64,000 bases of DNA, from NCBI GenBank assembly GCA_963722305.1, contig CAVRKE010000002.1, forward strand, positions 40,566 through 104,565, given 5' to 3'. The DNA is from Candidatus Levyibacteriota bacterium. GTDB taxonomy: Bacteria; Patescibacteriota; Microgenomatia; Levybacterales; UBA12049. Made by a program: the position numbers and the translations under genes. The first letter of the stretch is position 1, and every line of letters begins with the position of its first letter. Positions 468-4,385 of this stretch are shown in pieces. A model generated the notes under the pieces. That model was not told the origin of the DNA, searched no databases, and was given only the letters and a program-made list of their open reading frames with translations.

Positions 468-675
468 ATGTATCTATTGTACTTGTAATATTTTTATCTA
501 ATCATTTTTTGTATCATTTTTCAATAAGATCCTATTACGTTTAATTTCATTTGACCCCAACGGGAGTTGAGCCATCGATCGAACCTAAACTCTCTGAGTA
601 TATACTTCAGCGTTTAAACTGTACCTTAACGATGTCCAATTTAGTATTAAAATGGTCATCGACAATTTTTAACTC

Positions 676-713
676 TTGACATAGTTTATAGTTTACTATA
701 AACTATAAACTAT
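676..713 (+). promoter_or_regulatory. Sigma70-like promoter (TTGACA 676-681, TATAAA about 17 nt downstream) overlapped by a 15-bp-arm inverted repeat ATAGTTTATAGTTTA-CTA-TAAACTATAAACTAT (681-713); putative autoregulatory operator
   Basis: Read directly from the sequence. The palindrome spans the -10 region and the ATG at 712 of the downstream HTH gene. Confidence 0.4.
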
Positions 714-1686
714 GAAAACCAATACTAGAAAACTGATCGTAGAATATATAAGGGAAAATAATCAACTTAGACCACATGACTTAGCTCGCCTACTTAAAAT
801 TAGTGGTACAGCAATCCATAAACAACTAAAAAAACTTATAGACGATGGTGAACTGGAAAAAATCGGCAAGCCACCTAAAGTGTATTACGTTTTAGCATTT
901 AAAAAAGTAACTAGGCCGGAGCTGATTAATCCGGCTTTACTTCGTACTATTAATGCAAGATATCTTTATATCTCTCCAACTGGAGAATCAAAAGAAGGAT
1001 GGGAAGGGTTTCAGGCGTGGTGCGAGAAAACAAAACAAGATCCAATAAAAACAGCGAATGAATACATCTCTACACTCAAGAAATTTGACAAGTTTAAAGA
1101 GAACGATCTCATTGACGGCATGCCAAAAATGAAAAGTACTTTTAATAAAGTTTATCTAGATAAACTTTATTATCTGGATTTTTATAGTATCGAAAGATTT
1201 GGGAAAACTAAACTTGGACAAATGCTTTTATATGCCAAACAAAGTCAAAATACAAATTTAATTAGCCAACTCATAGATCAAATCCGACCTAAAATAATAA
1301 AAATTATAAAAGAAAACTCAATTGACGGAATACTTTTTGTACCCCCAACTGTGAAACGAGAAATCCAGTTTATGAAAGAGTTGGAAAAACAACTAGCACT
1401 ACCGTCAAGAATTTTATCGGTGACAAAAATAAAAACGGAAATAATTGTACCACAAAAGACTCTTTCAAAACTTGAGGATCGAATTGAAAATGCAAGAAAA
1501 ACAATTATAGTTGACGACAAAAAAGAATATAAAAATGTGCTTCTTATTGACGACGCAGTTGGATCCGGCGCCACAATGAATGAAACGGCAAGACAAATTA
1601 AAAAAATGAGTTTGGCAAGTGGCGAAATTATCGGATTGGCTATTACTGGGAGCTTTAAAGGATTTGACGTAATTAGCGAAGTGTAA
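712..1686 (+). CDS. Winged-HTH plus phosphoribosyltransferase-domain regulator (PurR-like architecture)
   Basis: N-terminal wHTH (RPHDLARLLKISGTAIHKQLKKLIDDGELEKIGKPPKVYYVL). C-terminal PRTase PRPP-binding motif VLLIDDAVGSGATMNETARQI. Confidence 0.6.
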   Translation: MKTNTRKLIVEYIRENNQLRPHDLARLLKISGTAIHKQLKKLIDDGELEKIGKPPKVYYVLAFKKVTRPELINPALLRTINARYLYISPTGESKEGWEGFQAWCEKTKQDPIKTANEYISTLKKFDKFKENDLIDGMPKMKSTFNKVYLDKLYYLDFYSIERFGKTKLGQMLLYAKQSQNTNLISQLIDQIRPKIIKIIKENSIDGILFVPPTVKREIQFMKELEKQLALPSRILSVTKIKTEIIVPQKTLSKLEDRIENARKTIIVDDKKEYKNVLLIDDAVGSGATMNETARQIKKMSLASGEIIGLAITGSFKGFDVISEV

Positions 1687-2503: not shown

Positions 2504-3085
2504 ATGAAAAAATTGACCACCCGCGAAATCGCTTTAGCTGCCGGCCTGGCTGCCATTTCGGCAGTTGTCCAATTAATTCACATCGGCTATCAATCACCGC
2601 AATTTGGGATGTGGATTGATTTTGTGGCAGTCACCTGGATTATCGGCATTTTCCTTTTTGGATCCCGCATGGCTTTTATCGTTTCTGTCGTCGGGACAAT
2701 TTTTATTGCTCTTTTTGCACCCGATACCTGGCTAGGCGCATCAATGAAATGGCTGGCAAGCTTCCCTGTTTGGTTTTTACTTGGAGTCTGGATTTTTAAA
2801 AAAGGCCAGGCTTTTGAGTATTATAAAAAATGGCAAAGGCTGCTTATTCCGCTTTTTATTGCCATTGTTATCCGCTGTTTGATTATTATTCCCCTGAACT
2901 ATTTCTACGCCATCCCGATTTGGACCGGCTTAAGTCCCACAAAAGCGATGGCGGTAATCCCCTGGCAAATAATCGCAGTCTTTAACATTATCCAAAGCTT
3001 CGTTGACGTCGGAGTAGCTTGGCTTTTGGTCTACAAATTTGGGCTAAACCGTTTTGCTCCTTTTAATCAGACAAAAAAAGACTGA
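2504..3085 (+). CDS. ECF-transporter substrate-specific (S) component-like membrane protein
   Basis: 193 aa, about 6 TM segments, N-terminus MKKLTTREIALAAGLAAISAV typical of S components. Directly followed by an ABC ATPase and a T-like protein. Confidence 0.45.
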   Translation: MKKLTTREIALAAGLAAISAVVQLIHIGYQSPQFGMWIDFVAVTWIIGIFLFGSRMAFIVSVVGTIFIALFAPDTWLGASMKWLASFPVWFLLGVWIFKKGQAFEYYKKWQRLLIPLFIAIVIRCLIIIPLNYFYAIPIWTGLSPTKAMAVIPWQIIAVFNIIQSFVDVGVAWLLVYKFGLNRFAPFNQTKKD

Positions 3086-3087
3086 AT

Positions 3088-3825
3088 ATGAAAAACGGAA
3101 TAATATTGCAGGATATTTCGGTAAGTTATCGGTCAGGGATTTCACAGCTTAAAAATATCTCCGTGCAAATTCCAAAAGGGACTTTTTTGGGCATTACGGG
3201 CGTAAACGGATCCGGAAAAACCACTTTCGCTCTACTTTTAAACGGACTTATCCCTCACGAAATACCGACGAAATTAAACGGAAATGTTTTTGTCGACGGT
3301 GTGAATACTAAGAAAAAACCGGTCGCTTATTTTGCCGATAAGGTTGGCATGCTTTTTCAGAACCCGGATTTTATGTTGTTTAACCTGACCGTTTTTGCTG
3401 AAATCGCTTTCGGACTTAGTAAGCAAACTGATATTGACAATAAAGTCTTCGAAGCTTTGGGAATGGTGGGTCTTAAGGGCTTTGAGAAACGCGATCCGCA
3501 AACCTTGTCTTTAGGCGAAAAGCAGAAGGTCTGCCTGGCAAGCGTCTTAGCCAGGGACTCTGAATATATCGTCCTTGATGAACCGGTGGCAATGCTTGAC
3601 TACAAAGGCGCAGTCAGTCTTTATGAACTGCTGATGAAACTGAATCGACACGGAAAAACGATTATTGTGATTGAGCATGATACGGATTTCTTACTTAAAT
3701 ATGCCAAACGGGTTGTAATTTTAGAACAGGGCGAAATAGTTTCTGCCGGAAAACCAACTTCCATTTTTTCACACAGAGAGCAATTGAAAAAATTAGGAAT
3801 CAAGATCCCCCAACCGATATTATGA
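3088..3825 (+). CDS. ABC transporter ATP-binding protein (ECF A component / CbiO-like)
   Basis: Walker A GVNGSGKTT, ABC signature LSLGEKQKV, Walker B IVLDEP, H-loop IEHD. Confidence 0.85.
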   Translation: MKNGIILQDISVSYRSGISQLKNISVQIPKGTFLGITGVNGSGKTTFALLLNGLIPHEIPTKLNGNVFVDGVNTKKKPVAYFADKVGMLFQNPDFMLFNLTVFAEIAFGLSKQTDIDNKVFEALGMVGLKGFEKRDPQTLSLGEKQKVCLASVLARDSEYIVLDEPVAMLDYKGAVSLYELLMKLNRHGKTIIVIEHDTDFLLKYAKRVVILEQGEIVSAGKPTSIFSHREQLKKLGIKIPQPIL

Positions 3826-4385
3826 AAAAATCCGTTACTGTTTTAAAAATTATTTTGCTTTTGGCAGTTAATTTTTTTGTGTTTTTGACAAAAAATATTT
3901 TTTTACTGTCCGGAATTTTTTTACTTATCACAATCATGCTCCTACCAACAAAGTACTCACTAATCAGTAGGCTAAAAGTAATTCTGCCAATTTGTTTGAT
4001 AATTTTGCTCTCGCAAATGATTTTTAATTCTGCCTTTTCTTTGGAACAACGTTTTATCTTTGGCTATCTTAGCTCAATACGTATTATTATTGTCAGCCTT
4101 TCGGTATTTGTGTTTTTGGCAACGACTGCGCTTTCCGAAATTGTCGCTGTCTTTAATTTTTTACCAAAAGATTGGCTATTGCTACTCACTATTACCTGCT
4201 ATCTAATTCCGGCGACATTAAGCGAAGTAGAACATATCCGCGTCGTCCAAAAATCGCGGACTGCTTATAAAAACCGCTGGAATGTTATCAAAAATATTGC
4301 TTCTTTGTTTGTACCTCTACTGCACCGAATTTTTAATCGGGCCGAGGTAATCTCCCTTACTATTGTTTCCAGAACTATTGAATAA
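3822..4385 (+). CDS. Small membrane protein, putative ECF T component (CbiQ-like, short)
   Basis: Start overlaps the ATPase stop by 4 nt (operonic). Multi-TM. Conserved-looking cytoplasmic stretch EHIRVVQKSRTAYKNRW. Only 187 aa, which is short for CbiQ. Confidence 0.4.
   Translation: MKKSVTVLKIILLLAVNFFVFLTKNIFLLSGIFLLITIMLLPTKYSLISRLKVILPICLIILLSQMIFNSAFSLEQRFIFGYLSSIRIIIVSLSVFVFLATTALSEIVAVFNFLPKDWLLLLTITCYLIPATLSEVEHIRVVQKSRTAYKNRWNVIKNIASLFVPLLHRIFNRAEVISLTIVSRTIE

Follow-up and report, generated by a model that had tools for sequence, protein, structure and literature searches.

A winged-helix–phosphoribosyltransferase family of probable autorepressors with a heptamer-repeat operator over the core promoter

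Introduction

What does a protein do that joins a DNA-binding domain to a phosphoribosyltransferase (PRTase) fold, and whose gene begins inside a palindrome? This question is raised by a gene for a 324-amino-acid protein near the start of a 64,000-nucleotide stretch (hereafter, the window) of contig CAVRKE010000002.1 from a Candidatus Levyibacteriota bacterium. A protein identical to it (P0001) is encoded on a 679-kb NCBI contig. An original prediction, made from the letters alone, had seen in it the architecture of Bacillus PurR, which senses phosphoribosyl pyrophosphate (PRPP), and had deduced repression of its own gene through an inverted repeat. PurR of Bacillus subtilis likewise represses its own gene. 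Here, we describe a conserved palindrome that changes in step with the recognition helix of the protein, which makes self-repression very probable, and a PRTase domain that resembles ComF and several toxins more than it resembles PurR. We put at about 65% the probability that this PRTase is an enzyme payload under self-limited expression and not the sensor of a PurR-style regulon.

Results

A perfect palindrome of heptamers covers the core promoter

Positions 676–714 of the window read TTGACATAGTTTATAGTTTACTATAAACTATAAACTATG. Within them, a repeat finder delimited an inverted repeat with the arms CATAGTTTATAGTTTA (680–695) and TAAACTATAAACTATG (699–714), each of 16 nt and 100% complementary, on either side of a 3-nt spacer (Table 1). 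The inverted repeat of the original prediction, which had been described as near-perfect with 15-bp arms, is therefore real and slightly better than proposed. With regard to the promoter, a consensus scan found 10 out of 12 matches in TTGACA and TAAACT, separated by a 17-nt spacer, and the former hexamer is kept in the closest relatives (L001, L056 and L102). TAAACT (699–704) and the ATG (712–714) both lie within the repeat, the latter in its right arm, as had been claimed for the -10 element and the start codon.

The repeat runs from the end of the -35 box over the promoter spacer, the -10 box and the expected transcription start to the start codon, so that a protein bound to it should exclude RNA polymerase. 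Since transcription would be expected to begin with the A of the ATG or beside it, the mRNA of this gene is probably leaderless. The palindrome far exceeds chance: when the window was shuffled 60 times with its dinucleotides preserved, perfect arms reached at most 12 nt, as opposed to 16 nt in the real sequence. The folding energy of its single strand is -12.7 kcal/mol (z = -8.6 in comparison with shuffles).

This capacity to fold could also suit a palindrome with a role other than that of a protein operator, be it an RNA hairpin that masks the start codon, a transcription terminator, or a target of recombination or of mobile elements. Two further observations point in this direction, namely a weaker promoter-like site (626–653), from which transcription could pass through the palindrome, and a tRNA-like fragment upstream. 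Such an explanation is hardly credible in view of the orthologous loci described in the next section. Moreover, the palindrome lacks a terminator-like T run, and searches with Rfam and ARAGORN gave no RNA gene in the window or the leader and no Rfam match above threshold.

Table 1. Predicted features of the locus and their positions in the window
Feature	Positions	Strand	Remarks
-35-like hexamer TTGACA	676..681	+	Consensus scan; overlaps the palindrome by two bases
Candidate operator	680..714	.	Perfect inverted repeat, 35 bp; spacer CTA at 696-698
Two tandem heptamers TAGTTTA (682-688, 689-695)	682..695	+	Heptamer register common to the family
Two tandem heptamers TAGTTTA (699-705, 706-712)	699..712	-	Include the -10-like TAAACT (699-704) and extend to the first base of the start codon
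Coding sequence of the 324-amino-acid winged-helix–PRTase protein	712..1686	+	Stop codon included; sole long open reading frame there
Winged helix-turn-helix (HTH) domain, residues 4-62	721..897	+	Three helices and a beta hairpin
Predicted recognition helix GTAIHKQLKKLID, residues 32-44	805..843	+	Holds residues 33 and 36, which covary with positions 5-7 of the operator unit
ComF/PsyrT-type PRTase-like domain, residues 104-313	1021..1650	+	Profile and Foldseek matches
Intragenic palindrome (uncertain part)	1143..1172	.	Heptamer as inverted pair AGTTTAT/ATAAACT
PRPP-binding loop VLLIDDAVGSGAT, residues 276-288	1537..1575	+	Nine invariant positions in 25 homologues

The predicted operator is conserved and covaries with the recognition helix

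Together with the window, 80 orthologous loci (L001–L080) make up the 81 family loci considered here. In nearly all of these 80, a palindrome of tandem and inverted 7-bp units was found just 5′ of the start codon, and the best upstream palindrome had a median of 12 matched arm positions over the 81 loci, compared with 6 for 527 other genes of the same loci. Its end was located, in most loci, between 3 nt within the coding sequence and about 30 nt before the ATG. The palindrome includes the -35-like core TTGAC in 25 loci, and 26 of about 80 loci have a -10-like hexamer whose end is exactly 6 nt from the ATG; a Shine-Dalgarno-like motif was present in only 12 out of 81 loci, and some of these motifs may be operator bases. 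Judged on their upstream regions, the mRNAs of the family look leaderless. In many orthologous loci, the palindrome holds the -35 core and precedes a -10 box at 6 nt from the ATG; it would consequently not be transcribed, which argues that the element acts at the DNA level and against a hairpin or a terminator.

The sequence of the heptamer unit changed with residues 32–37 of the predicted recognition helix. Helices of the form xRA[VI]RK went with the unit TAGTTCC, xRA[VI]FK with TAGTTCA, xQA[LV]FK with TAGTTGA, xQAxFR and GTAIHK with TAGTTTA, RQAVHR with CAGTTTA, and RxATHR with CAGT[AG]TA. When residues 33 and 36 were set against unit positions 5–7, a near-diagonal table was obtained, with the pair RR accompanied by TCC in 21 of 22 cases, RF by TCA in 11 of 11, QF mostly by TGA or TTA, and H36 by TTA or [AG]TA. 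The mutual information between both sets of positions amounted to 2.0 bits, a value that none of 2000 permutations reached, although the permutations ignore shared ancestry and this figure is thus not a probability. That the palindrome tracks the recognition helix of the protein is a further argument against its being anything other than a protein operator.

The locus consequently displays the features of autorepressing winged-helix proteins, i.e., a predicted cognate inverted repeat over the own core promoter that is conserved and covaries with the recognition helix. Given the palindromes of the 80 orthologous loci and this covariation, the self-repression postulated in the original prediction gains considerable backing, and we regard repression of the gene by its own winged helix via the palindrome as very probable.

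The same winged helix and operator precede other genes

In an independent, DNA-first test of the predicted pairing of palindrome and protein, metagenome contigs were scanned for the window-type operator (AGTTTATAGTTTA-N1-5-TAAACTATAAACT), and 59 sites were found, which again speaks for an operator of this protein. At least 51 of them adjoin a gene that starts with this winged helix, usually 0–9 nt away, and two further sites (L122 and L123) adjoin a winged-helix gene at a contig edge. Histidine occupies position 36 in 46 of the 47 readable helices, with the remaining one being of the FR class. Except for L102 (85%), the full-length PRTase-family members in this set were only 36–55% identical to the window protein and yet bear the window-type operator, which indicates that the type of operator follows the helix and not overall similarity. 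In L113 (6053–6155), a window-type operator is followed by approximately 14 tandem CTATAAA heptamers with no cognate gene directly after them; this array gives the impression that the operator unit has multiplied in the manner of a microsatellite.

The genes headed by these sites were not restricted to the PRTase family (around 325–333 residues in the metagenome set). Five loci (L084, L090, L106, L117 and L118) encode fusions of the winged helix with an NTP_transf_2 domain (around 160 residues; E = 2e-14 to 3e-12), in which the operator overlies the start codon and each gene is followed by an overlapping gene of the HepT-like HEPN type (E = 1.3e-27). To judge by these matches, this is a toxin–antitoxin arrangement of the MntA-HepT type, in the version with an HTH-fused antitoxin. 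A further eight loci (L095, L096, L103, L104, L109, L125, L136 and L138) encode a family of around 258 residues that combines the winged helix with a weak C-terminal HATPase_c match (E = 0.016), followed in L096 and L109 by a gene for a DUF4325 STAS-like protein (E = 3e-7). Finally, the operator of L094 (788–816) adjoins the ATG of a gene (open reading frame from 817; Pfam PIF1, E = 6e-37) whose product, a PIF1-like helicase, lacks a winged helix. A Fic/Doc-like pair is located upstream of this helicase gene.

As the same winged helix and operator stand before several types of genes, they would constitute a portable autoregulatory unit that heads different nucleotide-using enzymes. For the same reason, a dedicated PRPP-sensing regulator of a regulon appears unlikely.

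The C-terminal domain resembles ComF and toxin phosphoribosyltransferases

With regard to the N-terminal domain, Pfam HTH_24 passed its threshold at residues 4–46 (28.1 bits vs. 21.9), and the generic models MarR_2 and HTH_5 matched as well. For the C-terminal domain, the window protein alone matched Pribosyltran and PRTase-CE at E = 2.9e-4 each, under the Pfam threshold; among 25 family members, all matched PRTase-CE and 23 matched Pribosyltran (E ≤ 0.01). The best NCBIfam model was ComF (TIGR00201; E = 1.4e-6, residues 168–303), a partial match of 28.4 bits against a cutoff of 233.55. Among PADLOC models, PsyrT was the best (E = 1.4e-18; residues 104–313 against positions 473–683 of 689), followed by type III-A retron PRTases (E = 9e-7, weak) and ShosT, a ranking that is biased since PADLOC holds only defence models. 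The PsyrT model matched 25 of 25 family members (best E = 6.8e-21), as did the retron PRTase_III-A profiles, and ShosT matched 22 of 25.

A similar picture emerged from the predicted structure. The top Foldseek match in the PDB was Helicobacter pylori ComF (7p0h_A; E = 2e-4, 183 aligned columns), followed by PurF, XPRT, HGPRT, APRT and ShosT; B. subtilis XPRT scored E = 2.6e-3, below ComF and PurF, and no PurR structure was found among the 50 best matches. Searching the PDB by sequence, with either the protein alone or a profile of the family as query, yielded nothing beyond ferritin matches at chance level and weak ones to HTH proteins or OPRT. Nine residues of the PRPP loop (L277, L278, I279, D280, D281, G284, S285, G286 and T288) were invariant in the 25 homologues, as were K239, K241, T242, Q248, K249, T250, E255, D256, R257 and N260 of the preceding loop. 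The HTH_24 match, the PRTase matches of the family and the Foldseek neighbours confirm both halves of the architecture given in the original prediction, and the C-terminal domain is best assigned, on profile and fold similarity, to the branch of ComF, PsyrT, ShosT and the type III-A retron effectors rather than to that of PurR.

This assignment bears directly on the possibility that the protein is a PurR-like regulator, with a catalytically inactive PRTase as sensor of PRPP or nucleotides and a winged helix that controls a nucleotide-salvage regulon in addition to its own gene. The domains follow the order of B. subtilis PurR, with a winged helix ahead of a PRTase fold of type I whose PRPP loop is intact; self-repression is plausible for both, and a PRPP-sensor role for such domains was considered by the authors of a ShosT study (PMC12961424). 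However, PurR_N (PF09182) was unmatched by the window protein even at E ≤ 1 and was not among the 25 listed of the 26 families matched by the 25 homologues. The profile search that the original prediction had called for thus found Pribosyltran (sub-threshold for the single protein, positive in the family) but not PurR_N, and of the likeness to PurR only the domain order stood. In contrast to the conserved PurBox of PurR, moreover, the heptamer-repeat palindrome varies between relatives, its specificity diversifying quickly. Housekeeping regulons usually keep their box. Nucleotidyltransferase and ATPase-like domains are, in addition, combined with this winged helix and its operator, and in view of all these differences a PurR-like role is improbable.

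Similarity to ComF suggests another explanation, namely a lineage-specific analogue of ComFC that would act on DNA as it enters the cell, an uptake on which these reduced bacteria presumably rely. ComFC has an N-terminal four-cysteine zinc finger. Here, a winged helix and a segment of about 40–100 residues take its place, and a single cysteine (C104) is invariant in the 25 homologues. ComF nonetheless ranks first both among the solved structures and among the NCBIfam families; both proteins have a PRPP loop, and by eye the loop motifs T-x5-Q-x2-L-x5-R-x2-N (residues 242–260) and DD...G.T resemble the ComF pattern. A study of ComFC (PMC9005727) describes a zinc finger, single-stranded DNA binding and a PRTase domain. 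Apart from the score far under the cutoff and the missing zinc finger, a sequence-specific double-stranded operator over the own promoter, as predicted here, is not a feature of ComFC, and there are no adjacent competence genes. We therefore consider this explanation unlikely.

The strongest profile similarities were those to PsyrT of PsyrTA (RqlHI), ShosT of ShosTA and the type III-A retron effectors, i.e., to toxin PRTases of known defence systems. This raises the tentative possibility of a single-gene conflict module (an abortive-infection or addiction toxin), in which a PRPP-depleting or DNA-damaging PRTase would be kept harmless by autorepression, possibly by DNA binding itself, until triggered. 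In the known systems, toxicity resides in the PRTase domain and calls for binding of PRPP (PMC11961720; PMC12961424); ShosT is toxic only with its counterpart of the DD pair, and its acceptor is still unidentified (PMC11961720; PMC12961424). The PRTase of retron Eco11 depletes PRPP (PMC12746101), and retron III-A effectors likewise pair a PRTase with a winged helix (PMC7736814). Nevertheless, PsyrT carries an N-terminal RecQ-like helicase domain and ShosT a pyrophosphatase (bioRxiv 10.1101/2022.05.11.491447; PMC11961720), and both are paired with DprA-like antitoxins (bioRxiv 10.1101/2022.05.11.491447), whereas the gene in question has neither such domain nor an adjacent DprA-like antitoxin gene. 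It differs equally from the type III-A3 to III-A5 effectors, as it stands alone, with no reverse transcriptase, non-coding RNA or other conserved partner, and its winged helix is N-terminal and not C-terminal and is predicted to recognise a chromosomal operator rather than the reverse-transcribed DNA (msDNA) of a retron.

A comparable mode of regulation is found in AbiEi and HTH-fused MntA-type antitoxins, where an N-terminal winged helix acts on inverted repeats over its own promoter, a binding that is predicted for the present family; weak AbiEi_4 and AbiEi profile matches were also obtained. Unlike in those antitoxins, the fused domain here resembles a toxin, and no second gene follows.

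Distribution and conservation of the family

Approximately 4,000 clusters at 90% identity matched the protein at E ≤ 1e-3, nearly all of them around 324 residues long, and clustering at 50% left 786 matching representatives, 224 of which were below 1e-30. A pattern scan of one genome per species (185,579 species) found confirmed relatives in at least 328 stretches, a restricted occurrence that speaks against a ComFC analogue. Most members belong to many lineages of Patescibacteria, with others in genomes labelled Melainabacteria, Saganbacteria and Omnitrophota. They appear in public databases as ‘hypothetical protein’, ‘winged helix-turn-helix transcriptional regulator’ or ‘hypoxanthine-guanine phosphoribosyltransferase’. 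In the literature, we found no paper describing the winged-helix–PRTase family and none naming the Pfam family ‘PRTase-CE’.

Sequences group by host lineage and are around 55–60% identical between phyla, which is atypical of fast-evolving defence genes and thus argues against a conflict module. The family was also absent from collections of phage genomes, IMG/VR contigs and plasmids, save for one distant archaeal ComF on a plasmid. This sole plasmid match, a gene annotated as ComF, fits a ComFC analogue; the absence of the family proper from the phage, viral and plasmid collections tells against a conflict module, and an origin on phages or plasmids is not supported by it. Mean pairwise identity was 65% in the PRTase part compared to 48% in the winged helix, so the DNA-binding domain is the less conserved one, a point against a PurR-like regulator.

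Regulon and genomic surroundings

The flanking genes, an upstream open reading frame of 294 residues without a Pfam match and a downstream, convergent gene for a GNAT acetyltransferase, are both on the opposite strand, and the gene is consequently monocistronic. Neither a second operator before any other gene nor a heptamer operator elsewhere was found in the 64-kb window, nor was there a paralogue of either domain. The further copies of the half-site envisaged in the original prediction were thus not encountered before any other gene of the window. Of the two absences that it had named as telling against it, one was found, as there are no other promoter-proximal copies in 64 kb, and the other was not, as profile matches to both domains exist.

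In about 630 kb of related loci, the noteworthy additional double-unit sites were limited to duplication or chance, in L057 and L035. In L057, around 95 nt of promoter and operator are duplicated (2730–2826 and 3890–3990) on both sides of an open reading frame of 209 residues, which looks like an IS200/RAYT-type transposase from a motif judged by eye. The direct repeat of L035 lies within a priA-like gene and is probably a chance site.

Clustering of open reading frames revealed no conserved neighbour in the 81 loci, the largest cluster (Fic-like) being present in six. Upstream and downstream genes occur in either orientation, and the immediate neighbours differ in nearly every locus. Neither a purine regulon nor any other can be made out in the window or among these neighbours, which is a further point against a PurR-like regulator. 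Genes of Fic, RelE/ParE-like and DUF4143 ATPase types, identified by eye from the sequences, are among them, and such variable, toxin–antitoxin-rich surroundings would suit a conflict module.

Discussion

In the mechanism that we infer for this gene, transcription would be leaderless and the N-terminal winged helix would bind the four TAGTTTA heptamers, probably as a dimer or a dimer of dimers. By binding the palindrome it would exclude RNA polymerase and repress transcription, so that the protein would be kept at a low, self-limited level. The C-terminal two thirds, a ComF/PsyrT-type PRTase with an intact PRPP loop, would then be the payload, a dose-limited enzyme that binds PRPP and depends on it for catalysis. 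We favour this interpretation on four grounds: one and the same cassette accompanies unrelated enzymes, the sequence scanned shows no regulon, operator specificity shifts fast between relatives, and the enzyme domain is better conserved than any other part. As to what the enzyme is for, nucleotide salvage may be a further option beside conflict and ComFC-like handling of DNA.

Proteins that hold an enzyme and a repressing DNA-binding domain in one polypeptide are known, with BirA, PutA and NadR as examples. These proteins control the operons of a pathway and answer to the substrate or product of their own reaction. The present family shares with them the combination of an enzyme domain and a predicted repressor domain but differs in that only self-repression is visible.

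Several points weigh against an enzyme payload or limit the case for it. Firstly, the operator scan covered 64 kb of a contig of about 0.68 Mb (around 10% of the genome), so that distant regulon sites are possible, as a PurR-like regulator would require. Secondly, the window-type operator before the helicase gene of L094, which has no winged helix, makes regulation in trans possible; it is the sole candidate of this kind and likewise favours a PurR-like role. Thirdly, the roles of sensor and payload are compatible with each other in one PRTase domain. Fourthly, the covariation counts are uncorrected for ancestry, and the classes of helix and operator both follow clades. With regard to the protein, the PRTase matches of the single sequence are below the Pfam and NCBIfam thresholds, and the structure model is of medium confidence (pLDDT 77.8), with low values in the flexible loop of residues 243–251. 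Finally, the payload interpretation assigns no role to the intragenic perfect palindrome that contains the operator heptamer (Table 1).

A bolder version of the payload interpretation, which we advance only tentatively, would combine two ideas. On the one hand, the protein might be a one-protein conflict or addiction module, a PRPP-consuming toxin similar to PsyrT and ShosT that is held harmless, and perhaps inactive, by its own operator-bound winged helix; it would be unleashed once binding or repression is disturbed, for instance by phage DNA, nucleases or a shut-off of host transcription. That the cassette also heads an operon of the MntA-HepT toxin–antitoxin type, and that operator specificities diverge like those of immunity regions, would be in line with this idea. 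On the other hand, winged helix and operator might form a portable, rapidly re-specifying ‘dose-limiter’ cassette, whose payloads would include the PRTase, MntA-HepT and a GHKL-like ATPase, and whose residue-to-base code could be read from natural variants.

Irrespective of the payload, the analysis defines a large unnamed protein family, mostly of Patescibacteria, and corrects a tempting annotation as PurR that was wrong. The mechanism of the regulatory half would be conventional; what appears to be new is an uncharacterised family in which a winged helix joined to a PRTase would repress its own gene from a distinctive operator of repeated heptamers. Over 100 natural combinations of winged helix and operator follow a single plan, with 7-bp units in tandem and inverted order, yet differ in specificity. 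They yield a testable recognition code (R33/R36 with TTCC, R33/F36 with TTCA, Q33/F36 with TTGA and H36 with TTTA) and provide a collection of autorepressor parts that are probably orthogonal, from organisms in which almost no transcription regulation is known. The family further places a ComF/PsyrT-type PRTase in a new, partner-free context, where it may be easier to handle biochemically.

Other features of the locus

The intragenic palindrome, TAATAAAGTTTATCTAGATAAACTTTATTA, is a perfect one of 30 bp inside the part of the coding sequence that specifies the peptide NKVYLDKLYY, and is the second-longest perfect inverted repeat of the window. Given this peptide and the codon usage of the window, its probability is 5.8e-4. 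A conserved second operator was rejected as a feature of the family, as the palindrome is absent from the 80 orthologues; in the window itself, it could be an auxiliary operator or a coincidence.

Upstream of the gene, the motif CC[CAT]AACGGGA[GT][TC][TC]GA[AG]CC occurs in the window (564–581) and, at about 40–70 nt from the gene, in L001, L056, L102 and L008. Its reverse complement resembles the T-loop and the 3′ acceptor end of a tRNA, and ARAGORN calls no tRNA there. A tRNA-like fragment as a general part of the cassette was rejected, since the motif does not go beyond these five close relatives, in which it may be what is left of an integration site. Beyond the GNAT acetyltransferase gene, positions 2504–4385 of the window encode a transporter set of the ECF type (an S component matching ECF_trnsprt, an ABC ATPase and a CbiQ/EcfT-like protein), which appears to be unrelated to the winged-helix–PRTase gene.

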